Assembly (NCBI RefSeq): GCF_054482525.1
Contig: NZ_CM137006.1
DNA: 64,000 nucleotides
Reading direction: 5' to 3' (one strand)
Positions 10,774 through 58,190 of the stretch are shown here, in pieces. The notes under the pieces are model-generated. The model was not told the DNA's origin. It did no database searches and was given only the letters and a program-made list of their open reading frames with translations. Both the position numbers and the translations under genes were made by a program. The stretch's first letter is position 1, and each line of letters opens with the position of its first letter.

Positions 10774-12207
10774 TTACAGCATGTTCCAGCCGATCAGCAT
10801 ATTCCACCACCACACGCCGAGGGTGATATGCACCAGGAAGGTTAATATCGTCAGTACCGCACCGACCAACCACCAGGATTTAATATCGTTGTAACCCACG
10901 CCAAAGATGACCGGACCTGCCGCGCCGCCATAGTGAGTAACCATGCCGCCATAGGAGTTAGAGAACAACAGTGCCAGCGCGGTTAACATTAACGGTGCGC
11001 CGGAGACGTTCGCCAGCATGGCAAATACCGGTAACATGGCAACGATATAGGCACTACCGGAAGCGAAGAAATAACGCACGATAATGCTGAGGAAAATAAT
11101 AACGAAGAAAGCAACGTTACCGTGACCATCAAATGCCAGGTTATTTTTAAAGACTTCAGCTAACCATTCGAAGAATTTAACTTTCGATAATAAGGAGCTT
11201 AAGCCGATAATACCGCCGTACCAGATTAAGGTATTCCAGCCGCCTTTATTTTTAACCACGTCTTCCCAGGTAACGATACCCAGCAGCAGCATAGTCGCCA
11301 TAACAACGATTGCCACGGTGGATTCATCAACCCCCAGTGACTTACTGAAAATCCAGCCCAGCAGCGCCAGCACGAAGACACCGAGCAGCATTTTTTCGCG
11401 GATTTTCATCGGTCCCAGTTCGGCAAGGCCCGCTTTGGCGATGGTTTTGTTATCCACCTTCTTAATTTCTGGCGGATACATGGTGTAAATCACCAGCGGG
11501 GTGACCAGCAGCATAATGATACCCGGCAATCCGGCGGCCAGCGCCCATCCACCCCAGCTAATTTGCAGGTGCAGAATGTCGTTGATCATTTTCAGCGCCA
11601 GAATGTTCCCCGCCATTGCGGTAAAGAACATATAGCTGGTGGTTTTGGTGACCATGTAAATGGACATCATCAGGTAATGTCCGACACGACGCGGGCTTTT
11701 TTCAGGTTCTGACCCCAAAGCCACCGCCACGCTGTTGATGATCGGTAACACAATGCCGCCCGCACGCGCGGTGTTAGACGGTGTTGCCGGAGCCAGTACC
11801 AGATCGAGGAATACCGTAACGTAACCCAGACCCAGCGTGGTGTTACCGATTTTACCAATCAGCAGATAGGCTATACGTTTACCTAAGCCGGTGGTCACAA
11901 ATGCGGCGCTTAAGGTGAACGCCGAGAACACCAGCCAGGTGGTACCTGAAGAGTAACCGCTTAATACGGCGGTGGTCTTAAACGCACCGTCGGATAAGTT
12001 ACCGACCACCACCATTGAGGCAGCAACGGCAATTAACAGTACGACAGGTTCCGGGAAAGGCTTGATAACCAGCCCCACAATGGCCGCCAGGTAAATACCA
12101 AAAAGCACCCACGCCAGTTCGCTTAATCCTGCCGGAGCTGGCATAAAGCCAATAATACATGGGATCGCTAATATCAGAATTAGCTTCCATAACGATTTTT
12201 TATTCAT
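10774..12207 (-). CDS. ybhI: Anion transporter, DASS/ArsB-like permease superfamily
   Basis: 477 aa highly hydrophobic ORF MNKKSLWKLILILAIPCIIGF... Confidence 0.88.
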   Translation of the reverse strand: MNKKSLWKLILILAIPCIIGFMPAPAGLSELAWVLFGIYLAAIVGLVIKPFPEPVVLLIAVAASMVVVGNLSDGAFKTTAVLSGYSSGTTWLVFSAFTLSAAFVTTGLGKRIAYLLIGKIGNTTLGLGYVTVFLDLVLAPATPSNTARAGGIVLPIINSVAVALGSEPEKSPRRVGHYLMMSIYMVTKTTSYMFFTAMAGNILALKMINDILHLQISWGGWALAAGLPGIIMLLVTPLVIYTMYPPEIKKVDNKTIAKAGLAELGPMKIREKMLLGVFVLALLGWIFSKSLGVDESTVAIVVMATMLLLGIVTWEDVVKNKGGWNTLIWYGGIIGLSSLLSKVKFFEWLAEVFKNNLAFDGHGNVAFFVIIFLSIIVRYFFASGSAYIVAMLPVFAMLANVSGAPLMLTALALLFSNSYGGMVTHYGGAAGPVIFGVGYNDIKSWWLVGAVLTILTFLVHITLGVWWWNMLIGWNML

Positions 12208-12282
12208 TTAAAATCCTGTTCTTTCTGTATGACTCATACAGAAGTCCTTTATTGATTGTCCTTATCCTGACAACGAATTTTT

Positions 12283-13335
12283 TCAGGGAAGAAAAACTTC
12301 ACCGGAAAATATTTTTCTGGTTGTCCGAATAACAGATGCGCGTAACGTCGTGGCATCCTGACCTTCATTACTTAAATGAACGTCGAGCGCACCACTGGGG
12401 TGTTCAATATTGATATTGCCGTATCCTACAGAAGGGACGATTTGTCGGGTGACGGTGCCTTCCAATGCACAACTACTGGAAATGGCAATAGCTCCGGTTA
12501 TCGCCAGCGCGCGATGGCAAGAATGCGGCATAAAATAACGCACATTAATTGCTCCGCCTTTCTGCGCTGGAGAAATAAGCACAGGTTTAGGGATAACCAT
12601 ATTACTGACATCGCCTAAGCCCATTGCTTTACCCGCTTGTAGACGGATAGATTCAATGCGGGCTAATAATGCTTTGTCGGCATCCAGCTCCGTCGGTAAT
12701 TCATAGCCTGTTTTTCCCAGATATTCAGCAGGAATAATGACAACTGGCATCGCCATATCGATACAGGTCACCGGGACATCGTCAAAATAATCAATCTGAT
12801 TATCAGTCGGGAAGACTTTTCCGGTTTTGGTTCCGGCGGCATTCAGGAAAGTGAGCGCAACCGGTGCGGCAGTACCCGGTACGCCGTCAATTCTGGCGCT
12901 ACCCTCGTACTCGACAACACCATTTGGCGTTTGCACATCAGCTTCGATGAACGTACCAGTATTGACGTTGCGGATACGTACGCGGGTAACTGGCGAAGTC
13001 GCTGCAATCAAACCATTTTCAATGGCGAATGCCCCAACGCCAGACAGCATATTGCCGCAGTTAGGCGTGGTATCGACACGTTGCTCATGGACGATAACTT
13101 GAGCAAACAGATAATCGACATCTGCACGCGGATCGCTGGAGCGGCTAATAATGGCGACTTTACTGGTCAGCGGATTACCGCCGCCAATACCGTCAATTTC
13201 CAGATCGTTACCGGAACCCATAATTGCCATCAATATTTTATCGCGCTGCGTTTGATCTTCGGGTAGATGTTCCGCTAACAGGAACGCGCCCCTCGAGGTT
13301 CCACCTCGCATCATCACGCAGGGTATTTTTTTCAT
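12283..13335 (-). CDS. ybhH: PrpF/AcnD-accessory family putative isomerase
   Basis: 350 aa ORF MKKIPCVMMRGGTSRGAFLL... Confidence 0.85.
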   Translation of the reverse strand: MKKIPCVMMRGGTSRGAFLLAEHLPEDQTQRDKILMAIMGSGNDLEIDGIGGGNPLTSKVAIISRSSDPRADVDYLFAQVIVHEQRVDTTPNCGNMLSGVGAFAIENGLIAATSPVTRVRIRNVNTGTFIEADVQTPNGVVEYEGSARIDGVPGTAAPVALTFLNAAGTKTGKVFPTDNQIDYFDDVPVTCIDMAMPVVIIPAEYLGKTGYELPTELDADKALLARIESIRLQAGKAMGLGDVSNMVIPKPVLISPAQKGGAINVRYFMPHSCHRALAITGAIAISSSCALEGTVTRQIVPSVGYGNINIEHPSGALDVHLSNEGQDATTLRASVIRTTRKIFSGEVFLP

Positions 13336-43130: not shown

Positions 43131-43935
43131 CATGACTCCTTGCTCATCGCATGAAGACTCCGAGAGTGAACCCCGTTAGAAAGGGTCACACGCATGCCCC
43201 AATACAAAATTATTTGCTCGCCTCTATCGTTGCCATTTCATCAAAAGAGGAAAAGACAATGATAAAAAAGTTACAAATATGTTAATGAATAAACCAAATT
43301 GATCCCGTAATTATATTACGCCGCAAAATCCTTACAATAAACAGGTTTTTATTGAGCAAATTTGCATTTTTCGACAGTGATCAATTTATAGCGAAATTGT
43401 CACGATCTCACCAATTTGATCTACGACAATTTATCGTGTTTTGCAGATTTTTTTCAAGAATTAAAAATTGATTTATATCAAAATCAACCAAATATGTTAA
43501 TTATGTATAAACCATAGATTATTGGTAATTTTATTGTTAATTTATTGTGAAATATTTATACAACACAATTATTACAATGAAAAGGTATAGATAAAAAACC
43601 AGTGTTTTATTTAACAGAACCGCCCTATCCACTTTTTATAATACCAATTGATTAGAGTAGCCAATTTGTTGCTATTTTACATAACATATTTTTATCAAAG
43701 TTAATTGATTGTTGCCTTTATGAGCACCGACCGTAAGCCCGTTATGTTATTGTTTCATTAGTAATAATCACTTAAATGTATCGATGAAACAGGTATGACT
43801 TAGCGGGAGTGATTGTTTCTGAGTGAACAGAGACCACTTTCGCCTGATAAATGAAAAATGAGCGATTTTTGCAAGTTAGTTTTTCTATAGCCGAGTACGC
43901 TCAGCGCCTCGCTTGATTACAATGAGGTTGCTGCT
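43131..43935. promoter_or_regulatory. cydA upstream control region (long AT-rich leader/promoter region)
   Basis: ~800 bp AT-rich non-coding DNA upstream of cydA; contains a perfect FNR-type box; cydAB is known to be FNR/ArcA/H-NS controlled. Confidence 0.8.
43468..43481. promoter_or_regulatory. FNR binding site
   Basis: ttgatttatatcaa = perfect TTGAT-N4-ATCAA. Confidence 0.75.
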
Positions 43936-44880
43936 ATGAGTCCTGATAATATCAGTTCTGCTGTCAATCGCTTCTCAGGTTGGCCATCTAATAATCCTCT
44001 AAAAACAGATAACGAATCAATGACATCACCCATGACTGTGCAGGTAATAAAGATGATTGCCGCCATCCTTGACCCACATCGAATAGTCGTTGGAATCGAT
44101 ACACTTTATACAACGCAGCGCGAAACATTTACCTCAGAGAGTCAACAGCTCATTGAATCAGCATTGCAAACACTTCATGTGATGAATTTAAATAACCTGG
44201 AAACAAATCTCGATGAGGAAGGTCACTATCTGGCTTTTGGATATAACGTTGACACTCCTGACAGAATAACCGTTTCTGCTTATAATGAAAAAAAGCCTGG
44301 CTGCTATGGCCAATGTCTTTTAATACAGGATGACGAAACAGACTTATTTAACCTGATAAAAGTTAAAATTTATGAAGCCAGGCATAATTATGTCGCTCAA
44401 TTGATGAGCGATCCGGAATTTATGTTCAAATTTAGTTATAGCGCTCAACAAAATAGATTAGAACCTCATCTTCTGGTTCCCACTTATTTCCCTCTAAAAA
44501 CAAACGAACCGGTTACGCCAGAGGATGTACTGTTACTTTATCGTTTCTTTAAAATGGATGGTGATTTTAATATATTAACATCAGATGAATACATGAGTAT
44601 CATGACACCTCTGATGAAGTGTGAGCGCAGCATCCACGACCACAACAGGTATGTGACGGGCAAAGATACCCTTCTTCTGGACTATCCTCCTTCTGGTAAC
44701 CAGATATATTTCCATATTTTTCCTGACGAATCAGCAACACTAGTCCTTTATTTTTCAAACAATGACATTGAATGTTTCGTCTTTGAAAGAGATATTCCGA
44801 GCCAGTATCGCTTTTTCAAAATGTTTACCAATCTGGCACTGGTTATTGATCAGTTAACCGATGCCAATCAAATACTTTAA
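43936..44880 (+). CDS. Hypothetical protein, 314 aa, AT-rich gene, no family recognised
   Basis: Intact ORF with SD-like gagg upstream; codon usage and GC clearly lower than flanking genes; Ser/Pro/Asn/Thr-rich N-terminus without hydrophobic signal peptide. Confidence 0.7.
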   Translation: MSPDNISSAVNRFSGWPSNNPLKTDNESMTSPMTVQVIKMIAAILDPHRIVVGIDTLYTTQRETFTSESQQLIESALQTLHVMNLNNLETNLDEEGHYLAFGYNVDTPDRITVSAYNEKKPGCYGQCLLIQDDETDLFNLIKVKIYEARHNYVAQLMSDPEFMFKFSYSAQQNRLEPHLLVPTYFPLKTNEPVTPEDVLLLYRFFKMDGDFNILTSDEYMSIMTPLMKCERSIHDHNRYVTGKDTLLLDYPPSGNQIYFHIFPDESATLVLYFSNNDIECFVFERDIPSQYRFFKMFTNLALVIDQLTDANQIL

Positions 44881-44960
44881 TTTTTATATATCCCCTGTGG
44901 CAAATATTGCTAAACAATGCCCGGGGATTAATTTTTATTACTCACGGAAAGATTTAAATA

Positions 44961-45383
44961 ATGATCCCATCTCAAATCTCTTTCAACACCCTTCCTGTCA
45001 ATGCAACATACGCTTCAGAGACAACAGTTGACACACAAAAATTCTCTGACATCCTCTACTCAGCGGGGTGTTCCCTAAAGGATCTGGCTTATCTGAGCAG
45101 ATGTCTGGCATCAATACATCCGACTATCGCCAAAAACATTTATGAAACAGAAAATCTCAGCGATCAAAAATTACTGCATATTGATTTCCGTAGTACAAAT
45201 GAAATCAAGATAAATATCTTTTTTGGTCAACAACGAGAAGGATTAATTGAAATTAATTCTGACACTGTCATTTTTCCGATATTGTCTTCATTAATTGACT
45301 CCGCCATTTCTAAATTTCAACACCAAATCCCCGTTAACGGTTCAGTAAATCCTGACCTATTGTATGAGGATTATACTGATTAA
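44961..45383 (+). CDS. Hypothetical protein, 140 aa, apparently acidic, AT-rich gene
   Basis: ORF 80 bp downstream of the 314-aa gene, same strand, same low-GC composition. Confidence 0.6.
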   Translation: MIPSQISFNTLPVNATYASETTVDTQKFSDILYSAGCSLKDLAYLSRCLASIHPTIAKNIYETENLSDQKLLHIDFRSTNEIKINIFFGQQREGLIEINSDTVIFPILSSLIDSAISKFQHQIPVNGSVNPDLLYEDYTD

Positions 45384-45930
45384 ATCCCTCCTGTCGCGAA
45401 AAATGGCCTGCGTTATTGCCAGACGTAATAAAACTTTTGATTAACGTTACTCGTACTGGTAGCACCTTCATGTACTTTTCTTTTTTACGAAAAATCAAAA
45501 GAGCTAACAAAGGTCATAATTCGCATGAATCATTAATTATTTGTTATTTTCAACATTATTTTTACATTAAGCAGAGATGAATTGCAGTGAAATTCGACTT
45601 AACTTTTATGAAATGCATTTACTCATAGCTAAAGCCACGTCACAAAAATGCAAATTAGAAGTTGATCACAATTATCTCAATACATCAAATCAAGTTAATT
45701 TTAAAAATTTAACATTCATGACATTAGTTGACATAACACACTGAATTAAAATGAGAATTTGAAAACACACTTTAAACAATCATTTCCCGAAAGACATTTT
45801 GAAAATAGATCAATTGCAACATTACGGTCAGATAAAGACACTCCTGTGATATTAAACCTGTGCCGTTATGAGCGGCCATAAATACGACGTGTGTAACTTA
45901 TTTTACTCTCTGTCTTACAAAGGATTACCC

Positions 45931-46380
45931 ATGAAGAAAGCAACACTTGTGATTGGCGTTATTGGCGCGGACTGCCATGCAGTAGGCAATAAAGTTCTGG
46001 ACCGCGTTTTTAGCAACCATGACTTCAGAGTTATTAATCTGGGCGTAATGGTCAGCCAGGACGAATATATTGATGCTGCCATTGAAACTGGTGCTGACGC
46101 GATTGTCGTCTCCTCTATCTATGGGCATGGCGATATCGATTGTCTGGGCATGCGCGAACGCTGCATCGAGCGTGGGCTGGGTAACATCCTGCTCTATGTG
46201 GGCGGTAACCTGGTGGTCGGAAAACATGACTTCGCTGACGTGGAAACCAAGTTCAAAGAGATGGGATTTGATCGCGTCTTTTCCCCAAGTCATGACTTAG
46301 AAGATGTTTGTCAGCTGATGGCCCACGATATCAACCAACGTCATGACGTTGATACTCGCATTCTTGAAGAGGCAATCTGA
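45931..46380 (+). CDS. Glutamate mutase S (sigma) component, B12-binding subunit of methylaspartate mutase
   Basis: ORF 45868..46380; start [21 protein letters not shown] at 45931 with SD aagga; DxHxxG cobalamin-binding motif (DCHAVG); ~149 aa, similar to clostridial GlmS/MutS. Confidence 0.88.
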
Positions 46381-47768
46381 TGCAAATCGTCTCTGTCGAT
46401 ATTGGATCGACGTGGACCAAAGCAGCCCTCTTCACCCGGGAGGGGGACGCGTTAACGTTGGTTAACCACGTTCTGACCCCAACCACCACCCATCATCTGG
46501 CGAAGGGGTTTTTCTCCAGCCTGGACCAGGTGTTAAACGTAGATAATGCCCTCCCCCTGTTAAACAGTGGTGAGGTTGCATTGAAGTATTCCTCCTCTGC
46601 CAAAGGTGGGCTGGCGGTTGCCGCAATGGGATTGGTGCCTTCTATCACCCTGGAAACCGCGAAAGTAACCGCTCACTCTGCGGGTGCTAAAATTGCGCAA
46701 TATTACGCCTACAAGCTGAACCGCCGTGATATCCAGGCACTGGAAGAAACGCAGCCCGATATTCTCTTGTTCACCGGCGGCACCGATGGCGGAGAAGAAA
46801 GCTACGGACTGAATAACGCCCGTGTGTTGGCAGAATCCAAACTCGACTGCGCCATTATTTATGCCGGAAACCGGGATATTCAGGACGAGGTGCAGGAGAT
46901 CCTCGGGCATAAAGACCTGACCATCGTCGACAACGTTCTGCCCGATCTTGACCATCCGAACCCTTTAGCTGCACGCCAGGCTATCTGCGACATATTCCTT
47001 AAACGCATCGTTAAAGGGAAAGGGTTGGATGTCATTGTTGATAAAACAGGCGAAGAACCAATGCCGACACCATGGACGGTCTTTGAACTGGTTAAGGCAA
47101 TCAGTAACGTCGATCACAGCTGGAAAGAGTTCATGCTGATCGACATGGGTGGCGCAACCACCGATGTCTATTCCGCCTGTGCCAACACGCTCTCGCCCGA
47201 CACCGTTTTACACGGCGTACCGGAACCCTTCGTGAAACGGACGGTGGAAGGCGATCTGGGAATGCGCGTCTCGGCAATGGTGGTTGGTGAAAGTGCGAAA
47301 GAGTTAGTCAATGTGAATTTTGCTCAGCAACCCGCACAGCTGGACGCTTTTTATCATTACCTCCGCCATCTAGTCGCTCATCCCGACTACTTACCCGCGA
47401 ATGCAGAAGAAAAATATTTCGATACCGTCCTGGCCGGACTGTGTGTGGGTTATGCCACCGAAAGACATGCGGGCACCAAAAAAGAGGTCTGCACCTGCGT
47501 CGGCAATGTCGATTTACAGATGGGACGTGACCTGACAACCGTGCGTAAAGTCGTTGGTTCCGGCGGATGGCTCTCGCGTGCCAGTCAGTTCGATATGCAT
47601 CACTGGTTGAAATACCGCGAGTTAAACGACGACGGTAAACGCATTCTCTTACCGACCGAATTTGAATATTACCGCGATTCCCGGGGGCTATTACCACTGC
47701 TGGCAAACGTCGCCAGAGTCGATCCACTGGCCGCCGCGCGCACCAGTATTCAATGCTTAACCCTATAA
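46380..47768 (+). CDS. Glutamate mutase L component (GlmL/MutL-like, ASKHA-fold putative reactivase/chaperone)
   Basis: 462 aa [18 protein letters not shown] (ASKHA phosphate-1-like motif); start overlaps S-subunit stop (ATGA); located between S and E genes as in Clostridium. Confidence 0.8.
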   Translation: MQIVSVDIGSTWTKAALFTREGDALTLVNHVLTPTTTHHLAKGFFSSLDQVLNVDNALPLLNSGEVALKYSSSAKGGLAVAAMGLVPSITLETAKVTAHSAGAKIAQYYAYKLNRRDIQALEETQPDILLFTGGTDGGEESYGLNNARVLAESKLDCAIIYAGNRDIQDEVQEILGHKDLTIVDNVLPDLDHPNPLAARQAICDIFLKRIVKGKGLDVIVDKTGEEPMPTPWTVFELVKAISNVDHSWKEFMLIDMGGATTDVYSACANTLSPDTVLHGVPEPFVKRTVEGDLGMRVSAMVVGESAKELVNVNFAQQPAQLDAFYHYLRHLVAHPDYLPANAEEKYFDTVLAGLCVGYATERHAGTKKEVCTCVGNVDLQMGRDLTTVRKVVGSGGWLSRASQFDMHHWLKYRELNDDGKRILLPTEFEYYRDSRGLLPLLANVARVDPLAAARTSIQCLTL

Positions 47769-47786
47769 CAATTAAGGCTGCAATCA

Positions 47787-49232
47787 ATGGAACTTCGAAA
47801 TAAGAAATTAACCCATGACGAATTCATGACCGAGCGGCAACAGGTACTGAAAACCTGGGAAACCGGCAAGGATGTTGAAAACTTTGAAGATGGCGTTAAA
47901 TACCAACAAACCATTCCGGAGCATAAACGCTTCTCTCTTGCCCTGCTGAAAGCAGACAAGGAAGGTAAAACTCTTAGCCAACCGCGCGCAGGCGTGGCGC
48001 TGATGGACGAACACATCGAACTACTGAAAACACTACAAGAAGAGTGCGATCTGCTGCCGAGCACCATCGATGCATATACCCGTCTGAATCGGTACGAAGA
48101 AGCGGCTGTAGGGATTAAAAAATCCATCGAAGCCGGAACCTCTAAACTGAACGGTTTACCGGTCGTTAACCATGGCGTCGCAGCTTGCCGTCGCCTCACC
48201 GAAACTCTGCAAAAACCGCTACAGATCCGCCACGGCACGCCAGATGCGCGTCTGCTGGCTGAAATCTCGATGGCCAGCGGCTTTACCAGTTATGAAGGCG
48301 GCGGCATTTCCTACAATATTCCGTATGCCAAGCGCGTAACGCTGGAAAAATCGATCCGCGACTGGCAGTACTGCGACCGTTTAATGGGGATGTATGAAGA
48401 ACACGGGATCCGCATCAACCGCGAACCGTTTGGCCCACTAACGGGTACGCTGATCCCGCCGTTTATCTCGCACTCTATCGCGATAATCGAAGGATTACTG
48501 GCGCTGGAACAGGGTGTGAAATCTATCACCGTTGGTTATGGACAGGTCGGCAGCCTTACGCAGGATGTCGCGGCGATCCAGTCTCTGCGTGAACTTGCAC
48601 ACGAATACTTTCAGAGCTATGGCTATACCGACTATGAATTAAGTACCGTATTTCACCAGTGGATGGGCGGCTTTCCGGAAGACGAATCGAAAGCGTTCGC
48701 CATTATCTCCTGGGGTGCAGCCGTCGCGGGGATGTCTGGTGCCACCAAAGTCATCACCAAAAGTCCGCACGAAGCCTGGGGCATCCCGACTGCCACTGCC
48801 AACATTCAGGGGCTGAAAGCCTCCCGCCAGATGCTCAACATGGTCAATGAGCAGAAATTCCCGCCGTGCCCTGCGGTTGAACTGGAAATTGAACTGATTA
48901 AGAGCGAGGTTCGCGCGGTACTCAATAAAGTGTTCGAATTGGGTAATGGTGATATTGCGCGCGGTACGGTGCTGGCATTTGAAGCGGGCGTACTGGATGT
49001 GCCGTTTGCACCAGCCGCGTGTAACGCGGGCAAAATTCTTCCTGTCCGTGATAACACCGGCGCGATACGCGTACTGGAAGCCGGAGCCGTTCCATTGCCA
49101 AAAGATATTCTCGACCTCCACCACGATTACGTTGCTGAACGCGCACGCTTTGAAGGACGCCAACCGACATTCCAGATGGTTGTAGATGACATCAATGCTG
49201 TATCCCACAGTAAATTAATAGGAAGACCATAA
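47787..49232 (+). CDS. Glutamate mutase E (epsilon) catalytic subunit, methylaspartate mutase
   Basis: 481 aa MELRNKKLTHDEFMTERQQVLKTWETGKDVE...; strong resemblance to remembered Clostridium cochlearium GlmE (MELKNKKWTDEEF...QPRAGVALLDEHI...HGTPDSRLLAEI...GGGISYNIPYAK). Confidence 0.9.
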   Translation: MELRNKKLTHDEFMTERQQVLKTWETGKDVENFEDGVKYQQTIPEHKRFSLALLKADKEGKTLSQPRAGVALMDEHIELLKTLQEECDLLPSTIDAYTRLNRYEEAAVGIKKSIEAGTSKLNGLPVVNHGVAACRRLTETLQKPLQIRHGTPDARLLAEISMASGFTSYEGGGISYNIPYAKRVTLEKSIRDWQYCDRLMGMYEEHGIRINREPFGPLTGTLIPPFISHSIAIIEGLLALEQGVKSITVGYGQVGSLTQDVAAIQSLRELAHEYFQSYGYTDYELSTVFHQWMGGFPEDESKAFAIISWGAAVAGMSGATKVITKSPHEAWGIPTATANIQGLKASRQMLNMVNEQKFPPCPAVELEIELIKSEVRAVLNKVFELGNGDIARGTVLAFEAGVLDVPFAPAACNAGKILPVRDNTGAIRVLEAGAVPLPKDILDLHHDYVAERARFEGRQPTFQMVVDDINAVSHSKLIGRP

Positions 49233-50473
49233 TGAAAATAAAACAGGCCCTGTTCACCGCTGGCTATTCCTCATTCTATTTCGATGACCAGCAGGCGATA
49301 AAAAACGGAGCGGGTCACGACGGCTTTTTTTATACCGGGGAGCCAGTAACACAGGGGTTTAACGCCGTACGTCAGGCCGGGGAGTGCGTATCGGTACAGT
49401 TGATTCTGGAAAACGGCGCGGTCGCCGTAGGTGACTGTGCTGCCGTACAGTATTCCGGGGCAGGTGGTCGCGATCCACTGTTCCTCGCGGAGCACTTTAT
49501 TCCGTTCCTCAACGACCATATCAAGCCATTACTGGTAGGCCGCGATGTGGATGCTTTCCTGCCGAATGCCCGTTTCTTCGACAAATTGCGTATTGACGGC
49601 AACTTGCTGCATACCGCCGTGCGCTACGGATTATCACAGGCGCTGCTTGATGCTACCGCGCTGGCAACCGGCCGTCTGAAAACTGAAGTGGTCTGTGATG
49701 AATGGCAGTTGCCACGCGTGGCGGAATCCATTCCATTATTTGGTCAGAGCGGCGACGATCGATATATCGCCGTCGATAAGATGATCCTTAAGGGCATCGA
49801 CGTGCTGCCCCATGCGCTGATTAATAACGTCGAAGAGAAACTGGGCTTTAAAGGTGAAAAACTGCGCGAATATGTCCGCTGGCTGTCGGATCGTATTCTG
49901 AGCAAGCGCACCAGCGCACGCTACCACCCTACCCTGCACATCGATGTATACGGCACTATCGGTCTGATCTTCGATATGGATCCGCTTCGCTGTGCGCAAT
50001 ACATCGCCAGCCTGGAAAAAGAAGCGCAAGGCCTGCCGCTCTACATTGAAGGGCCGGTCGATGCCGGTAACAAGCCCGATCAAATTCGCCTGCTGACCGC
50101 GATTACCAAAGAGCTGACGCGCCTCGGTTCCGGCGTGAAAATTGTGGCCGATGAATGGTGTAACACCTACCAGGATATTGTTGATTTCACCGATGCCGCC
50201 AGTTGCCACATGGTGCAAATCAAAACCCCGGATCTGGGCAGTATTCACAACATCGTCGATGCAGTTCTTTATTGCAACAGCCACAGCATGGAAGCGTACC
50301 AGGGCGGCACCTGCAATGAAACTGATGTCAGTGCCCGCACCTGTGTCCACGTCGCCCTTGCCGCTCGCCCCATACGTATGCTGGTAAAGCCAGGGATGGG
50401 CTTTGACGAAGGCCTCGATATCGTCTTCAACGAAATGAATCGTACTATCGCGCTGTTGCAGGCTAAGGATTAA
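49232..50473 (+). CDS. 3-methylaspartate ammonia-lyase (beta-methylaspartase)
   Basis: 413 aa MKIKQALFTAGYSSFYFDDQQAIKNGAGHDGFFYTGEP...CAAVQYSGAGGRDPLF...; enolase-superfamily MAL, close to remembered clostridial MAL; start overlaps glmE stop. Confidence 0.92.
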   Translation: MKIKQALFTAGYSSFYFDDQQAIKNGAGHDGFFYTGEPVTQGFNAVRQAGECVSVQLILENGAVAVGDCAAVQYSGAGGRDPLFLAEHFIPFLNDHIKPLLVGRDVDAFLPNARFFDKLRIDGNLLHTAVRYGLSQALLDATALATGRLKTEVVCDEWQLPRVAESIPLFGQSGDDRYIAVDKMILKGIDVLPHALINNVEEKLGFKGEKLREYVRWLSDRILSKRTSARYHPTLHIDVYGTIGLIFDMDPLRCAQYIASLEKEAQGLPLYIEGPVDAGNKPDQIRLLTAITKELTRLGSGVKIVADEWCNTYQDIVDFTDAASCHMVQIKTPDLGSIHNIVDAVLYCNSHSMEAYQGGTCNETDVSARTCVHVALAARPIRMLVKPGMGFDEGLDIVFNEMNRTIALLQAKD

Positions 50474-50476
50474 CAA

Positions 50477-51847
50477 ATGGCTCGTTCTTTTAAAGTCTTA
50501 TCGCCAACGGCAATCCTCGGGTATGGATTCCCGGAGGAGAGCTTCCGCAAAGCGATGGCAGAATCGCCCGATCTGATCGCCGTTGATGCTGGCTCTTCCG
50601 ATCCGGGTCCCCACTACCTCGGGGCGGGCAAACCGTTTACCGATCGCGCAGGGGTCAAGCGCGATCTACGCTATATGATCACCGCAGGCGTGCAAAATAA
50701 TATACCGGTGGTGATCGGAACGGCCGGCGGTTCTGGTGCCGCTCCACACCTGGAGTGGTGCCGAGAAATAATTCATGAGATTGCCCGGGAAGAGCACCTC
50801 TCGTTCTCGATGGCGCTGATCCCGGCAGACGTTGACAAAGCCATCGTCCACCAGGCGCTGGATAACGGCAAAATCACGGCGCTGGATTTTGTCCCGCCGT
50901 TAACCCACGACGCGATTGACGAAAGTACGTATATCGTCGCGCAAATGGGCATCGAACCCTTCCAGCAGGCGCTGAAAGAAGGCGCGCAAGTGGTGCTGGG
51001 CGGGCGCGCTTACGACCCGGCCTGCTTTGCTGCGCTACCGATCATGCAAGGCTTTGATGAAGGTCTGGCGCTGCATTGTGGGAAAATCCTTGAATGCGCG
51101 GCAATCGCCGCAACGCCCGGCTCAGGCTCTGACTGTGCGATGGGCATCATTGATGACAACGGCTTTACGCTGAAGACATTTAATCCGAAGCGTAAATTTA
51201 CCGAAACGTCAGCGGCTGCACACACACTGTATGAGAAATCCGATCCCTACTTCCTGCCAGGACCTGGCGGCGTGTTGAACCTGAAAGGCTGCACATTTAA
51301 AGCGGTCAATGACGGCGAAGTGTACGTCAGCGGTTCTAAGCATGAAGAAACGCCGTATGCCCTGAAACTGGAAGGTGCGCGACGGGTGGGCTTCCGCTGT
51401 CTGACCATCGCAGGAACGCGCGACCCGATCATGATCGCCGGGATCGATAAAATCATCGATGAAGTCAAAACCAGCGTTTCGCGTAACCTGTCGCTCGACG
51501 ATGACAGCATACGCATCAATTTCCACCTGTACGGCAAAAACGGGGTGATGGGCGACCATGAACCGATGCAAACTGCCGGGCATGAGCTGGGGATTGTCCT
51601 TGATGTAGTTGCACCGACCCAGGAAATTGCCAACAGCGTTTGCTCGCTGGTGCGCTCTACTATGCTGCACTACGGCTATGAAAACCGCATCGCTACCGCA
51701 GGCAACCTGGCGTTCCCATTCTCCCCTTCAGATATCCAGGGCGGGCCGGTATACGAATTTTCCATATATCACCTGATTGAAGCCAACGACGCTCTGCGTT
51801 TTGATTTCCATATTGAACAGGTGACGCCAGAAGGAGTTCAGGCATGA
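50477..51847 (+). CDS. Conserved protein of unknown function (possibly DUF1446 / AtuA-like family; assignment from memory, unverified)
   Basis: 456 aa ORF starting 4 nt after MAL stop; no recognisable catalytic motif. Confidence 0.75.
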   Translation: MARSFKVLSPTAILGYGFPEESFRKAMAESPDLIAVDAGSSDPGPHYLGAGKPFTDRAGVKRDLRYMITAGVQNNIPVVIGTAGGSGAAPHLEWCREIIHEIAREEHLSFSMALIPADVDKAIVHQALDNGKITALDFVPPLTHDAIDESTYIVAQMGIEPFQQALKEGAQVVLGGRAYDPACFAALPIMQGFDEGLALHCGKILECAAIAATPGSGSDCAMGIIDDNGFTLKTFNPKRKFTETSAAAHTLYEKSDPYFLPGPGGVLNLKGCTFKAVNDGEVYVSGSKHEETPYALKLEGARRVGFRCLTIAGTRDPIMIAGIDKIIDEVKTSVSRNLSLDDDSIRINFHLYGKNGVMGDHEPMQTAGHELGIVLDVVAPTQEIANSVCSLVRSTMLHYGYENRIATAGNLAFPFSPSDIQGGPVYEFSIYHLIEANDALRFDFHIEQVTPEGVQA

Positions 51848-52161
51848 AACAGTCAATTGTCTCACTGGCGCAAGTCATTCGTTCGAAAAATGCCGGACCT
51901 TACGAACTGGTTTTAGATATTTTATTTAAAACCAAAGAAAACTATGAGCGAGTTAAATCATCAGGGCAATTAACCCCAGAACTGATCGCGCGCTTATATC
52001 ATGTTGAACCTGACTTTATTCATCGTATTGTCTGGTTTGATCCTTCTAACGCAGTAAAAATCGTCATGCCACGAGATATTATCTCCGGGAATGTAGGTGA
52101 CAATGATGTCTATGGTGCACAGCAACATGCACCTTTATTAAATATGAGTTTCGATTTGTAA
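51844..52161 (+). CDS. Small conserved protein of unknown function (possibly DUF4387), partner of preceding gene
   Basis: 105 aa ORF whose ATG overlaps the stop of the preceding gene (ATGA), implying translational coupling. Confidence 0.7.
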   Translation: MKQSIVSLAQVIRSKNAGPYELVLDILFKTKENYERVKSSGQLTPELIARLYHVEPDFIHRIVWFDPSNAVKIVMPRDIISGNVGDNDVYGAQQHAPLLNMSFDL

Positions 52162-52321
52162 AAATCCGAACACTTTTAGCCAACTGACATCCCGTCACTT
52201 ATTGCAGTTCAACACTTCAGCTATTTGTAAGGTTGTAATAGCAGGTAGATGCCTGAATCTTTATTCGGGCATCTACTTCTCCTGATTCTGATTTATCGCC
52301 GTGCACCTGATGGAGGAAAAA

Positions 52322-53602
52322 ATGAAGAAAATAAGTTTAACCACGATGATTCTTTTGGCGCTGGTACTTGGAATGATTATCGGCGTAGTGCTCAATAACA
52401 CTGCTTCACCGGAAACAGCAAAACTCTATGCGCAAGAAATATCGATATTCACGACGATTTTCTTACGACTGATAAAAATGATTATCGCTCCGTTAGTGGT
52501 CTCTACCCTGGTGGTAGGTATAGCTAAAATGGGCGATGCCAAAGCCCTTGGTCGTATTTTTTCTAAAACACTCTTTTTATTTATTTGCGCCTCATTGCTG
52601 TCAATTGCCTTAGGCTTGATAACAGTAAATTTCTTCATGCCAGGCACAGGAATTAATTTTGTTGCACACGGTGCCGAAACCACCGGAGTGGTCGCGTCAG
52701 AACCCTTTACGCTAAAAGTATTTATTTCGCATGCTTTCCCCACCAGCATTGTCGATGCCATGGCGCACAATGAAATTTTGCAAATCGTGGTGTTCTCAAT
52801 TTTCCTCGGCTGTAGCCTGACGGCGATTGGTGAGAAAGGCAGCGCCATCGTTCACGCCTTAGATTCGCTGGCACATGCCATGTTAAAGCTCACTGGCTAC
52901 GTCATGCTCTTCGCTCCCCTGACCGTATTCGCTGCTATTTCAGCATTGATTGCTGAACGAGGACTGGCAGTTATGGTGAGCGCCGGGATCTTTATGGGTG
53001 AATTTTATTTCACCATGTTGTTACTTTGGGTGCTGCTTATCGGTCTGGCCATCGTTTATGTCGGCCCCTGCATCAGACGCCTGACCCGCGCCCTTTCGGA
53101 ACCCGCCCTGCTGGCATTTACCACATCCAGTTCTGAAGCGGCTTTTCCGGGAACGCTTGAAAAACTGGAGCAATTTGGCGTTTCCCCCAAAATTGCCAGC
53201 TTTGTCTTACCCATTGGCTACTCATTTAATCTCGTTGGATCAATGGCCTACTGCTCCTTCGCCACAGTTTTCATCGCCCAGGCCTGCAATATCCATTTAT
53301 CCATCGGTGAGCAAATCACCATGCTGTTGATCCTGATGTTGACCTCGAAAGGAATGGCTGGCGTACCACGCGCCTCAATGGTGGTTATCGCCGCCACGCT
53401 CAACCAGTTCAATATTCCGGAAGCGGGGCTGATCTTGCTGATGGGCGTTGATCCGTTCCTTGATATGGGGCGTTCAGCGACAAACGTCATGAGCAACGCA
53501 ATGGGCGCTGCGATGGTGAGTCGGTGGGAAGGCGAACATTTCGGCGAGGGCTGTCGGGGTAAAGCATTAAAACCCAATGAATCGAACGTTGCTCTGCCCT
53601 GA
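52322..53602 (+). CDS. Dicarboxylate/amino acid:cation symporter (GltP/DctA family)
   Basis: ORF 52301..53602; start MKKISLTTMILLALVLGMIIGVV at 52322 after SD ggagg; multi-pass hydrophobic protein resembling glutamate/aspartate or C4-dicarboxylate symporters. Confidence 0.85.
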   Translation: MKKISLTTMILLALVLGMIIGVVLNNTASPETAKLYAQEISIFTTIFLRLIKMIIAPLVVSTLVVGIAKMGDAKALGRIFSKTLFLFICASLLSIALGLITVNFFMPGTGINFVAHGAETTGVVASEPFTLKVFISHAFPTSIVDAMAHNEILQIVVFSIFLGCSLTAIGEKGSAIVHALDSLAHAMLKLTGYVMLFAPLTVFAAISALIAERGLAVMVSAGIFMGEFYFTMLLLWVLLIGLAIVYVGPCIRRLTRALSEPALLAFTTSSSEAAFPGTLEKLEQFGVSPKIASFVLPIGYSFNLVGSMAYCSFATVFIAQACNIHLSIGEQITMLLILMLTSKGMAGVPRASMVVIAATLNQFNIPEAGLILLMGVDPFLDMGRSATNVMSNAMGAAMVSRWEGEHFGEGCRGKALKPNESNVALP

Positions 53603-53709
53603 GGGGGATCTTAAGCAATCAGAAGCCAATGACTACGCATTTTTATAAGCCGGATCATGAAGTTAGACGGCAATTAAGTAACACTAACGTTTAAGGTGAA
53701 AAGTGAAAT

Positions 53710-55362
53710 ATGTCCAAACCATTTATCTGGCAAGAACCGTTTCTACAAAATAAAGACGGTACAGAATATACATTAATTAGCGATCAACATATTACAGTAA
53801 CGGAATTAGACGGCGAAGAAGTGATAAAAATCGCTCCTGAAGCATTAACGCTGCTTGCCCGGCAGGCATTTTATGAAGCCTCTTTTTTCTTACGTTCCGC
53901 TCATTTGCAACAGGTCGCCAGCATTTTTAACGATCCGCAGGCCAGCAGTAATGATAAATACGTTGCGTTGCAGTTATTACGTAATGCTGAAGTCTCAGCA
54001 AAAGGGGTATTACCCAACTGTCAGGATACCGGCACCGCAACTATTGTTGCCAGTAAAGGGCAACAGATATGGACCGGAGGTAACGACGCTGAAGCCTTAA
54101 GCAAAGGCATTTACACCACTTTCCAGGAAAATAATCTGCGCTTTTCACAAAATGCGCCGCTGGATATGTACACCGAAGTCAATACGCAAACCAATCTCCC
54201 GGCGCAGATTGATATCAGCGCTGTCGCTGGTGATGAGTACCATTTTCTCTGTGTTAATAAAGGGGGCGGCTCTGCCAATAAAGCCGCGCTTTATCAGGAA
54301 ACCAAATCCTTATTGCAACCAGAAAAACTGACCGCATTTTTAATCGAAAAAATGAAATCGCTGGGCACCGCTGCCTGCCCGCCTTACCACATCGCCTTTG
54401 TCGTCGGAGGGCTTTCAGCCGATCAAACCTTAAAAGTTGCCAAGCTGGCCTCTACGAAATATTACGACAATTTGCCCACCAGCGGAAACGAGCAGGGACA
54501 AGCATTCCGTGATATTGAGCTGGAAAAAGTGTTGCTCGAGGCCAGTCAGCAATTTGGTATTGGTGCGCAATTTGGGGGTAAATATTTCGCTCATGATATT
54601 CGCGTCATTCGTCTGCCGCGTCACGGTGGCTCTTGCCCGATAGCTATGGCGCTCTCCTGTTCTGCGGATCGCAATATCAAAGCAAAAATTAACAAGCACG
54701 GTATCTGGCTGGAAAAACTCGAACACAATCCTGGGCAATATATTCCAGCCTCACTACGGGAAGAAAATCACGCGCAACATGTACAACTGGATCTAAACCG
54801 TCCGTTGCGTGAAGTGATGCAGGATCTCGCCAGATTACCGGTAGGTACCCGCGTGTCGTTAAGTGGTCCCATCGTAGTGGCGCGCGATATCGCCCACGCC
54901 AAAATAAAAGTGCGGCTGGATAGCGGCGAACCGATGCCGGATTACCTGAAGCATCATATTGTCTATTACGCTGGCCCGGCGAAAACACCGGAGAACATGG
55001 CCTGCGGTTCACTGGGTCCAACCACGGGCGGTCGAATGGACGGTTATGTCGATACCTTCCAGGCTGCTGGCGGCAGTCTGGTAATGTTATCGAAAGGTAA
55101 CCGCAGCCAGCAGGTCACCGATGCCTGTCACAAACATGGCGGCTTCAATCTGGGAAGTATTGGCGGTGCAGCTGCGTTACTGGCGCAAGAATATGTCAAA
55201 AGTCTGCGTTGCCTGGAATACCCGGAGCTGGGTATGGAAGCGGTGTGGATGATGGAAGTGGAAAATTTACCCGCATTCATCCTGGTAGATGATAAAGGCA
55301 ATAATTTCTTTAGTCAGTTTGAGCAGCAACACCGCTGTGCCAGTTGCCCTGCGGGACATTAA
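53710..55362 (+). CDS. fumD: Class I (Fe-S) fumarate hydratase-like enzyme; likely mesaconase/fumarase FumD type
   Basis: 550 aa, collinear similarity to E. coli FumA/FumB ([74 protein letters not shown]); clustered with glutamate mutase and MAL. Confidence 0.85.
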
Positions 55363-55371
55363 GGAAAATGA

Positions 55372-55974
55372 ATGGAAGCGCGAATTTCAACTGAACGGCA
55401 TGTGCAGCACCAGCAAAAATTGAAGGAACAGGTCGATACGCGCGTCGCGGCGGCGATAGAGAAAAAAGGGATCTTGATTGTTTTCACCGGCAACGGCAAA
55501 GGGAAATCCACTGCCGCGTTTGGTACTGTGACGCGCGCGGTGGGTCATGGCAAAACGGTGGGGGTTGCGCAGTACATCAAGGGGCAATGGGACAACGGCG
55601 AATACAACCTTCTCCAGCCGCTGGGGGTTGAGTTTCATATTATGGGAACCGGTTTTACCTGGGAGACACAGAACCGGCAAGCGGATATCGACGCGGCGAA
55701 AGAGGTCTGGTCGGAAAGCAAACGGATGCTGGCTGACAAGCGTTACGACTTAGTGGTGCTTGATGAGCTGACCTATATGCTGGCTTACCATTATCTGGAC
55801 ACCGAAGAAGTGATCGCTTCTCTGCAAAACCGCCCGGCACAACAAAGTGTCATTGTCACCGGACGCGGTTGCCACAGTCAGATATTAAAAATGGCGGATA
55901 CGGTCAGCGAAATCCGCCCCGTCAAACATGCTTTTGATAACGGCATTCAGGCGCAGCCGGGTATCGACTGGTAA
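55372..55974 (+). CDS. Cob(I)alamin adenosyltransferase (CobA/BtuR family), cluster-associated
   Basis: 200 aa; P-loop VFTGNGKGKSTAAFG and ...WETQNRQADIDAA...DLVVLDELTYM...TGRGCH...VSEIRPVKHAF matching remembered E. coli BtuR. Confidence 0.88.
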   Translation: MEARISTERHVQHQQKLKEQVDTRVAAAIEKKGILIVFTGNGKGKSTAAFGTVTRAVGHGKTVGVAQYIKGQWDNGEYNLLQPLGVEFHIMGTGFTWETQNRQADIDAAKEVWSESKRMLADKRYDLVVLDELTYMLAYHYLDTEEVIASLQNRPAQQSVIVTGRGCHSQILKMADTVSEIRPVKHAFDNGIQAQPGIDW

Positions 55975-56685
55975 TAAATATCCTCCGGCATAGCCGGAGG
56001 TTTTTCAAATGCGCCTATAAGGCTCTCTTACCAGCCGCGCCCTAACAGGCGCACACGATCTGACATTTGCATCCAACTTCGTTACTTACGGCCCGTAAAC
56101 GGGCTGCCCGGATAGGGAATCGATAACTGCTCTCCCATTTTATCCTCTTCAAGCTGGTGCTTTATGTAATCCTGTATCTTCGCCGTGTTCTTACCCACCG
56201 TATCGACGTAGTACCCTCTGCACCAGAACTCCCTGTTCCTGTATTTGAATTTCAAATCACCAAACTGCTCGTAAAGCATCAGACTGCTTTTCCCTTTCAG
56301 ATATCCCATAAAGCCGGATACGCTCATTTTGGGCGGGATCTCCACAAGCATATGGATATGATCTGCACAGCATTCAGCTTCCAGAATCCGTACACTTTTC
56401 CACTCACACAGCTTTCTCAAAATACTGCCTATTGCTCTACGCTTCTCTCTGTAGAACACCTGTCTTCGGTATTTTGGCGCAAAAACTATGTGATATTTAC
56501 AGTTCCATCGGGTGTGCGCTAAGCTCTTTTCGTTCCCCATTGGGACCCCCTTTTGATTTCTTGTTTGACACTTGCAGTTGCCAGACCGCAAGGTGTTTTA
56601 ACAAATCAAAAGGGGTTTTAATAACTGGCTTAAAGCTGAAAGCTTTCCGGAACCCCCAGCCTAGCTGGGGGTTTTCTGTGCACAA
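55973..56685 (-). mobile_element. IS200-family insertion sequence, copy 2, 713 bp
   Basis: Identical by eye to 19138..19850 including transposase gene and both subterminal hairpins; begins within/at the TAA stop of the adenosyltransferase gene. Confidence 0.9.
56082..56540 (-). CDS. tnpA: IS200-type Y1 (HUH) transposase TnpA
   Basis: Protein identical to that of copy 1 (supplied ORFs 19247..19756 and 56082..56591 are identical). Confidence 0.9.
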   Translation of the reverse strand: MGNEKSLAHTRWNCKYHIVFAPKYRRQVFYREKRRAIGSILRKLCEWKSVRILEAECCADHIHMLVEIPPKMSVSGFMGYLKGKSSLMLYEQFGDLKFKYRNREFWCRGYYVDTVGKNTAKIQDYIKHQLEEDKMGEQLSIPYPGSPFTGRK

Positions 56686-56718
56686 TAACTGCGCCTGGCA
56701 TCCCGCCAGGCGCAGGTT

Positions 56719-57624
56719 TTACATCTCCTGCGGTACAACCGATTTCGCCAGCAACCATTCACGAAATTGCTGCAAGTGCGGTGAGTCAGACTTCTCTTCC
56801 TGCCACGTCATAATAAAACGATTACCGGTACGAATAGGCACATCACAGGGAATCACCATATCGCCACTATCCAAATCATGTTGAATAGCGAACCGTGGTA
56901 ACAGCGCCACGCCGAGATTAGAGCGCACGGCGGCAATCAGCATTGAAAGCAAATCGAAACGTGGTCCGTTGTTGACCAGCGGACTGCTAACGCCAGATAA
57001 GGCAAACCACTCTTCCCAGCCAGTAATACGGGTACTTTGATGCAGAAGTGGTAACTCTGTAAGCAGTTCTGCCACTGACAGTTTTTGATCGGACATTGCA
57101 AGCAAACTGCCGCTGCATACCGGCAAAATCTCCTCTTCAAAGAGATATTCTACTTCCGCCCAGGGCGCGCAAAAATTTTCGCGCATAATGACAGCATCGT
57201 ACTCCCGATTAAGAAAATCGCCGTTATTAGCTAAAGAGTGAATATTAACAATAATATCGGGATGTAACTTTGTGAATTCATGTAAATTTGGGATTAACCA
57301 GTGGGTACTAAACGTAGGATTCACGGCAAGTTCAATAACCTTAACTGTAGGTTGCCAGGTCATAATGGTATTGGTATCGCGTTCCAGCTTATTTAATGTT
57401 TCTTTTACTATCCCCAGGTAATACTTCCCTGCATCATTAAGAAAAATACGTTTTTTAGAGTGTGAAAATAACGGAGTATGTAAAAATTCCTCCAGCGCAC
57501 TCACTTGTCTGAATACTGCACTTTGGGTTAACGCTAACTCCTCTGCCGCTCTGGTATAACTTTCATGACGTGCGACGACCTCAAAAGTCACCAGCAGTTC
57601 CGTTTTAGGTATTTTTCCTCGCAT
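56719..57624 (-). CDS. LysR-type transcriptional regulator
   Basis: 301 aa; N-terminal HTH ...FEVVARHESYTRAAEELALTQSAVFRQVSALEEFL, C-terminal periplasmic-binding-protein-like effector domain. Confidence 0.85.
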   Translation of the reverse strand: MRGKIPKTELLVTFEVVARHESYTRAAEELALTQSAVFRQVSALEEFLHTPLFSHSKKRIFLNDAGKYYLGIVKETLNKLERDTNTIMTWQPTVKVIELAVNPTFSTHWLIPNLHEFTKLHPDIIVNIHSLANNGDFLNREYDAVIMRENFCAPWAEVEYLFEEEILPVCSGSLLAMSDQKLSVAELLTELPLLHQSTRITGWEEWFALSGVSSPLVNNGPRFDLLSMLIAAVRSNLGVALLPRFAIQHDLDSGDMVIPCDVPIRTGNRFIMTWQEEKSDSPHLQQFREWLLAKSVVPQEM

Positions 57625-58190
57625 AATGCCGTCCCTTAAAAATAGTTTAAACCATCAAAAATACATTACTTATTACGAAGTAATGGTAACCAAAGCAGCA
57701 ATAAATAATTTATAAGAATCATGATTGACATTTATAACCCAGTAAGCCTGGCGTGACAAATATCTTAATCAGATAATAATAATCCGAAAAGCACAGCGCC
57801 TTTCGAATTATCCGGAATCACATTAAGTGAAAATTATTAAATTGATATCATTTATCATATCTGTGGATATTATGATAAACAATCAACAAAGATTTTATTT
57901 TTGATTTATAGCATATCCCTCTAAGAATTTTTGCGATGCTGCAATATCCGGGGTAAAGACCCGATCCTGGCTGACAAATGGCACGACTTGACGATAAGCG
58001 GTGAACATCGCTTTTGTTGATTTACTTAACGCTACGGTCAAACGCTGGGAAGCCAGTGCATCAGGTAACGATTCGAAATTCGCCGTCGTTCTTATTCGTG
58101 GCTTGCGGTCGGTTGCGGCAATCCACAGTGGCTGTGGTCATGCAGTCAAGCCAGCGGTCAGATTTCGACCGTGGTTAACATTTAAGGCAT

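Follow-up and report, generated by a model that had tools for sequence, protein, structure and literature searches.

The island of Enterobacterales that encodes methylaspartate (glutamate) mutase and 3-methylaspartate ammonia-lyase also encodes a carrier, which raises the question of what that carrier transports and whether its substrate decides what the island does. We analyzed a 64,000-nucleotide stretch of contig NZ_CM137006.1 (assembly GCF_054482525.1; hereafter the window). An initial annotation had considered import of glutamate, methylaspartate or mesaconate and export of citramalate or mesaconate on equal terms. Kronen and Berg (2015) labeled the gene 'GltP, glutamate transporter' in their drawing of an island that they found in ~91% of O157:H7 strains. 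Searching the literature with locus tags of this region in O157 Sakai and EDL933 yielded neither functional nor expression data for the carrier, and later Enterobacteriaceae papers that we found on either methylaspartate lyase or glutamate mutase do not mention it; nor did we find a report of measured H+-driven glutamate/aspartate uptake by it. Here we combine family assignment, binding-site comparison, gene context and phylogenetic distribution.

The transporter gene and its operon

The transporter is a real, intact and previously annotated gene (Table 1). Its coordinates coincide with those of RefSeq CDS PPECC33_RS03730 / WP_000724204.1, 'dicarboxylate/amino acid:cation symporter', and it is 100% identical to the Escherichia coli PCN033 gene (NZ_CP006632.1, 809914-811194). 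Open reading frame, RefSeq CDS and Pfam SDF match agree, confirming the symporter gene that the initial annotation had placed here. A longer reading frame from a GTG at 52301 is unlikely; we prefer the ATG because the ATGGAG...ATG segment alone is conserved across genera, the sequence 5' of it being divergent in other genera. Of the 1123 E. coli genomes with the gene, 1121 have a match covering at least 80% of it, and dN/dS between genera is 0.04-0.07 with synonymous sites near saturation, which argues that the gene is functional.

Table 1. Features of the glm-mal-cml island in the window (positions of the whole stretch).
Feature	Coordinates	Strand	Remarks
glmS, methylaspartate (glutamate) mutase subunit S	45931..46380	+	first operon gene
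glmL, mutase accessory/reactivating protein	46380..47768	+	
glmE, methylaspartate mutase subunit E	47787..49232	+	
mal, 3-methylaspartate ammonia-lyase	49232..50473	+	
cmlA (annotated AtuA family)	50477..51847	+	~91% identity to PDB 9ERQ chain A
cmlB (annotated DUF4387)	51844..52161	+	matches PDB 9ERQ chain B
Intercistronic hairpin, 15-bp	52244..52277	+	in the 160-nt cmlB-transporter gap
Shine-Dalgarno sequence GGAGG	52312..52316	+	5 nt 5' of ATG 52322
DAACS/SDF-family transporter CDS, 426 aa	52322..53602	+	ORF (ATG 52322 to stop 53602) and family profile
fumD, class I fumarase working as mesaconase	53710..55362	+	characterised in Kronen and Berg 2015
cobO, corrinoid adenosyltransferase	55372..55974	+	AdoCbl supply for the mutase
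Bidirectional GC-rich hairpin	55982..56000	.	T-runs on both strands
LysR-family regulator gene	56719..57624	-	divergent, beyond hairpin 55982-56000

The carrier is gene 7 of 10 in a co-oriented, closely spaced row, with cmlB and fumD as its neighbors. The strong hairpin 3' of cobO is the likely end of the glmS-cobO transcription unit, and the LysR gene beyond it, which stays adjacent to the cluster in most genera, is its presumed regulator. A sigma-70 promoter scan gave five sites compared with 12.7 in shuffled controls, none of them before the carrier, and we therefore claim no internal promoter. The hairpin in the gap between cmlB and the transporter is kept in Escherichia, Citrobacter, Salmonella and Klebsiella with stems that differ through compensatory changes. 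No clear U-tract was seen 3' of it, and an mRNA stabilizer, an attenuator or a partial terminator would each be a guess at its role.

The cluster sits at the sucD-cydA locus, where K-12 has mngR-mngA-mngB instead, and is thus a replacement island. Together with the cmlB and fumD neighbors, this bears out the earlier description of the symporter as island-encoded and internal to the pathway cluster. In PCN033, an IS200C copy (window 55977-56684; tnpA 56082-56591, minus strand) separates the cobO terminator from the 3' end of the LysR gene; an O157:H7 genome lacks it at the same site. Two hypothetical ORFs (314 and 140 aa) occupy window 43936-45383, a 36% G+C stretch between cydA and glmS, and O157:H7 has both.

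A predicted complete route from glutamate to pyruvate and acetate

The genes directly upstream of the carrier bear on what the island does. The AtuA-family protein is ~91% identical across all 456 residues to chain A of PDB 9ERQ/9EVF, named 'Citramalate lyase, subunit A (cmlA)', and the DUF4387 protein matches chain B of the same entries, 'Citramalate lyase, subunit B (cmlB)'. A 2026 preprint used Raoultella planticola CmlAB, a gift of I. Berg's laboratory, and reported conversion of citramalate to pyruvate and acetate. The identity of CmlAB is based on the PDB depositors' molecule names and on this one preprint using the enzyme. RefSeq annotation of window 50477-52161 ('AtuA family protein', 'DUF4387 domain-containing protein') lags behind these names. 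The gene downstream of the carrier, fumD, encodes a mesaconase that prefers mesaconate, and the fate of citramalate was still open when it was characterized (Kronen and Berg 2015, PMC4682846).

With these assignments, the island is predicted to encode every step in the conversion of glutamate to pyruvate and acetate, with 3-methylaspartate, mesaconate and (S)-citramalate as intermediates. Because CmlAB and FumD are both present, the route would be catabolic whatever the carrier transports, and it would consume glutamate and need a supply of it. The proposal in the initial annotation that the carrier's substrate determines whether the island is a catabolic or an overflow pathway is thus unsupported.

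Family placement and predicted substrate

The sequence places the transporter in the DAACS/SDF/SLC1 glutamate-transporter family (PF00375, TC 2.A.23). The HMM search that had been proposed as a check on a GltP/DctA-type assignment matched the SDF profile end to end (343 bits, cutoff 27.9, E 2.2e-102; residues 6-402 on profile positions 1-387 of 387). Structures align over the full length as well: carrier residues 8-404 align with residues 14-417 of GltPh (E 1e-54) and residues 5-406 with PDB 9BGZ (E 1e-68), the full-length alignments to GltPh, GltTk and a reconstructed ancestral aspartate transporter spanning E 1e-46 to 1e-68. Since both the profile match and the structural alignments are full-length, family membership is far beyond chance, and the fold can be considered established at the level of sequence. 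Of the conserved family motifs, those of HP1 (SSSE), HP2 (GVPRAS) and TM8 (DMGRSATN) are present; TM7, NMDGT in GltPh, reads NLVGS, in which N310 and G313 (GltPh numbering) are kept and D312 is replaced by Val.

Family-level scores cannot decide between GltP and DctA, because the carrier falls below the cutoffs of both, with 302 bits against 638 for the GltP equivalog (NCBIfam NF008440) and 312 against 513 and 275 against 570 for DctA (NF002461 and NF009587). In a neighbor-joining tree built without bootstrap, the clade lies among D394-type sequences and the S394 DctA group forms a separate clade. E. coli GltP (b4077), a glutamate/aspartate:H+ symporter of the same family and fold, is 39% identical to the carrier and has D394, R397 and N401 in common with it, as well as a hydrophobic residue at 92, L311, N405 and E279. 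However, GltP sits on a different branch of the tree and has NLDGS, T398 and a Gly at the HP2 tip where the carrier has NLVGS, S398 and Arg. The C4-dicarboxylate:H+ symporter DctA of E. coli (b3528) likewise shares the family, YSFNL before the TM7 motif and the proton-type signature, but it is only 33% identical and has S394, E395 and A398 in place of D, M and S.

The nearest relatives, 52-57% identical, are uncharacterized GltP-like proteins of Chitinophaga, Zymomonas and alpha/gamma-proteobacterial MAGs. They share with the carrier the DMxRS motif of TM8 and the Arg at the HP2 tip and, unlike it, retain D312, G404 and mostly W88. The carrier is a distinct, uncharacterized orthologous group within a well-known family.

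Residues of the carrier correspond to those of GltPh as follows (GltPh equivalent in brackets): A90 (T92), S269 (R276), E272 (S279), N303-L304-V305-G306-S307 (NMDGT), R350 (HP2 tip G357), D381 (D394), R384 (R397), S385 (T398), N388 (N401) and S391-N392 (G404-D405). Position 394, which binds the alpha-amino group, is Asp in the carrier and GltP and Ser in DctA. Position 398, which places a hydroxyl beside the amino-group site, is Ser, Thr and Ala in the three proteins. Arg at 397 and Asn at 401, which binds the alpha-carboxylate, are common to all three, R397 being the side-chain carboxylate ligand in the glutamate-transporter family. TM8 accordingly reads LDMGRSATN in the carrier, LDMARTALN in GltP and MSEARALTN in DctA. 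The four carrier residues D381, R384, S385 and N388 are invariant in 55 orthologs, and the S394..A398 combination occurs in E. coli DctA and in 9 of 9 DctA-like loci. In GltPh and GltTk, archaeal Na+:aspartate symporters (PDB 2NWX, 5E9S), and in Anc-Int (PDB 9BGZ), the substrate-binding residues are conserved with the carrier.

Wang et al. showed that the residues at 394 and 398 switch the substrate class of family members, Asp/Thr going with acidic amino acids and either Asn/Ala (a mosquito carrier) or Ser/Ala (DctA) with dicarboxylates (PMC3737229). Retention of D394, S398 and R397, with the DctA-type Ser/Ala pair absent, favors glutamate-like amino acids over mesaconate or citramalate, and with moderate confidence we predict an acidic alpha-amino acid as the substrate class. 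The initial annotation's statement that the substrate is unknown stands, in that our literature search found no transport test of the protein. Its candidate substrates are no longer on an equal footing, as the comparison with GltP and DctA that it had suggested found an amino-acid-type, GltP-like site that favors the glutamate option and disfavors mesaconate and citramalate.

Predicted ion coupling and the NLVGS motif

Reddy et al. (2025) described signatures of proton-coupled family members, namely a hydrophobic residue in place of T/S92, M311L, D405N and a putative protonation site, S279E (PMC12668577). The carrier has the full signature (T92A, M311L, D405N and S279E, as A90, L304, N392 and E272), which points, with moderate confidence, to proton coupling rather than sodium coupling. 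GltPh, GltTk and Anc-Int keep the Na+ ligands T92, M311, D312 and D405. In the carrier, the Na1/Na3 ligands T92, D312 and D405 and the Na2 residue M311 are replaced by A, V, N and L, respectively, and Na+ coupling would not be expected.

Among these replacements, position 312 of the NMD motif, a Na3 ligand in GltPh, stands apart in that it is Val in the carrier and Asp in both GltP and DctA. Na+ binding by GltPh and EAATs depends on D312 (PMC12668577). V312, L88 and S404 are found in 55 of 55 enteric orthologs, the motif NLVGS being invariant, and the 15 nearest outgroups (45-57% identity; Chitinophaga, Zymomonas and proteobacterial MAGs) all have D312 and G404 and mostly W88. The three positions appear to co-vary, because every one of the 38 related amino-acid-type representatives with D312 has Tyr or Trp at 88 and Gly at 404, and those without it often differ. 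We rejected the idea that loss of the Asp is unique to the clade, since 10 of these 48 representatives have V, T, C or E instead, and the characterized E. coli members SstT (Ala) and TcyP (Asn) also do without it. SstT and TcyP are distant paralogs of the carrier with other substrates (Ser/Thr and cystine) and different TM8 residues. We treat NLVGS as a putative remodeled remnant of an old ion site whose effect on stoichiometry is possibly nil. The Arg at the HP2 tip (VPRAS; carrier R350) is present in 38 of the 48 representatives, with Gly in GltPh and GltP; purely as inference, R350 could pair with E272 at the HP1 tip on gate closure.

Distribution and gene context

Of 5426 complete E. coli genomes, 1123 carry the transporter and 1131 carry glmE, so that the two genes co-occur. 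Among species-representative genomes, a scan recovered 55 orthologs with 73-100% identity from ~15 Enterobacterales genera, the next relatives being at most 57% identical. In 48 of the 55 loci the ortholog lies directly 3' of cmlB in the order glmSLE-mal-cmlAB, and in one, a MAG without cmlAB, it directly follows mal. Five loci hold a second Morganella paralog directly 5' of fumD-cobO, ~36 kb from the first copy. The remaining ortholog, an orphan in Trabulsiella, adjoins a truncated aminotransferase gene and an IS66 fragment and is uninformative. In Yersinia the carrier is the last gene of the operon and is followed by housekeeping genes, and in Hafnia and Budvicia there is no fumD within 10 kb downstream of it; these arrangements tie the carrier most tightly to the glm-mal-cml module. 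No glm or mal genes were found near the 45-57% outgroups or near the nearest non-enteric relatives (representatives P0121, P0125 and P0128), whose housekeeping or uninformative context offers no independent clue to the substrate. The carrier was recruited once into the glm-mal cluster.

Directly after the carrier and before fumD, 29 of the 55 loci have a glutaminase gene, glsA (for example, 11383-12384 in locus L004). It is found in most Citrobacter, Enterobacter, Klebsiella/Raoultella, Buttiauxella, Lelliottia, Yokenella and Hafnia loci and is absent from those of E. coli and Salmonella arizonae. Because glutaminase makes glutamate, its position fits a role in glutamate supply.

In Morganella the cluster is split, each half with its own transporter paralog. 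Copy 1 (L042-L046 and L048) is 78% and copy 2 (L050-L052, L055 and L056) 74% identical to the query, and the two differ from each other with a dS of 1.4 and a dN/dS of 0.08. A cobT-like gene and a gene for a DASS-family transporter are also found in the vicinity of copy 2. A paralog beside fumD is the sole observation that the glutamate reading explains poorly, and it could have arisen incidentally when a rearrangement broke the cluster in two.

Two observations concern sequence history. Compared with O157:H7, window 52000-54000, which contains the transporter, is 99.0-99.6% identical and the flanking island genes (the rest of 43500-58000) are 96-98.6% identical; at 99% identity or above, 1108 E. 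coli records match the transporter and only 6 match glmE. These figures point to recombination of the transporter segment or to its recent sweep. Separately, a 7.3-kb contig labeled 'MAG: Collinsella sp.' (L011) carries mal-cmlAB-transporter-fumD-cobO at 98-100% identity to E. coli and is almost certainly E. coli contamination of a Collinsella bin.

Discussion

We propose that the carrier is probably a dedicated H+-coupled importer of L-glutamate, and probably also of L-aspartate, for the methylaspartate pathway. From the family, the binding- and coupling-site residues, the gene order, the distribution and the purifying selection reported here, we infer its substrate, transport direction and coupling ion. 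An elevator-type DAACS/SLC1/SDF carrier would bring L-glutamate (probably L-aspartate or close analogues) into the cell together with protons. It would be co-transcribed with the enzymes that turn glutamate into pyruvate, acetate and ammonia via 3-methylaspartate, mesaconate and (S)-citramalate, and co-transcription with glutamate-consuming enzymes would give a complete catabolic island its own dedicated uptake step. Several observations weigh against this proposal. The carrier scores below the GltP and DctA cutoffs, and its identity to E. coli GltP is just 39%. With GltP, GltS, GltIJKL and GadC already present in E. coli, the need for one more glutamate importer is not obvious. The Morganella paralog at fumD-cobO, away from the mutase genes, would also fit a mesaconate or citramalate role. 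Finally, the NMD-motif Asp is Val throughout the clade, and coupling may therefore differ from that of characterized GltP.

Two alternatives concern the substrate, and we regard each as unlikely. The carrier could have L-threo-3-methylaspartate, or another beta-substituted acidic amino acid, as its true substrate, so that a scavenged intermediate enters the pathway at the lyase step. The binding-site residues would suit any acidic alpha-amino acid, family members accept beta-substituted aspartates in EAAT/GltP pharmacology, and the carrier is linked to mal no less closely than to the genes of the mutase. Yet cobO and the genes for the AdoCbl-dependent mutase and its reactivase are inherited together in every case, which implies entry at glutamate; the glutaminase gene that follows the carrier in more than half of the loci (29/55) also speaks against methylaspartate, and free methylaspartate is not known to be an abundant nutrient. 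Alternatively, a DctA-like carrier of non-amino C4/C5 dicarboxylates could import mesaconate or fumarate or export mesaconate or citramalate, in line with a DctA score marginally above the GltP score (312 and 302 bits), a second Morganella paralog that adjoins fumD only, and the preference of FumD for mesaconate. This conflicts with the binding site, in which D394 and a hydroxyl at 398 are found in 55 of 55 orthologs and Ser/Ala in every DctA-type sequence examined (cf. PMC3737229), and with the tree, in which the clade does not group with DctA. Moreover, CmlAB consumes citramalate inside the cell, so no exporter is needed.

Other alternatives concern coupling and function. D312V, W88L and G404S could have remodeled the vestigial Na1/Na3 region such that fewer protons are moved or the carrier works as an uncoupled facilitator or exchanger. 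All three replacements are invariant in the 55 orthologs and absent from the 15 nearest outgroups, representatives with D312 uniformly have Tyr/Trp88 and Gly404 and those without it often do not, and a cation-independent exchanger has been demonstrated within the family, in Anc-Int (PMC12668577). Cheaper uptake would, we surmise, suit a low-yield fermentation. Against such altered coupling, the putative protonation site E279 is kept, and about one-fifth of the related amino-acid-type representatives, as well as SstT and TcyP, have no D312, so D312V need not affect coupling; as an alternative to the proton-coupled importer we consider it improbable. Stated as a property of a glutamate carrier whose ancestral Na1/Na3 site has been stripped of its one remaining acidic residue by these replacements, a changed proton stoichiometry or uncoupled transport is a doubtful, if slightly more plausible, proposition. 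That the carrier is instead a decaying or inactive remnant is very improbable. It does miss a residue held essential in sodium-coupled relatives, D312 being needed for Na+ binding in GltPh and EAATs (PMC12668577). However, a dN/dS of 0.04-0.07 across genera, a gene intact in all but two of its 1123 E. coli carrier genomes and an NLVGS motif invariant in 55 orthologs are at odds with decay.

The biological question raised by the initial annotation is largely answered by the neighboring CmlAB rather than by the carrier. For transporter mechanists, the invariant NLVGS offers a modest lead, as a natural variant for probing the role of the NMD-motif Asp in proton-coupled homologs. If loss of D312 did alter coupling, glutamate might, for example, enter in an electroneutral or facilitated manner or in exchange for a product; the change would represent an adaptation to low-energy fermentation and a natural experiment on the tuning of SLC1 ion coupling. 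Neither this point nor the annotation overturns current understanding, and the finding is largely ordinary. Its value lies in annotation: the gene can reasonably be named a putative glutamate(/aspartate):H+ symporter of the methylaspartate pathway, and its two upstream neighbors should be renamed citramalate lyase CmlAB. With both renamings, the island that ~21% of complete E. coli genomes carry would be seen to encode the entire B12-dependent conversion of glutamate to pyruvate and acetate.
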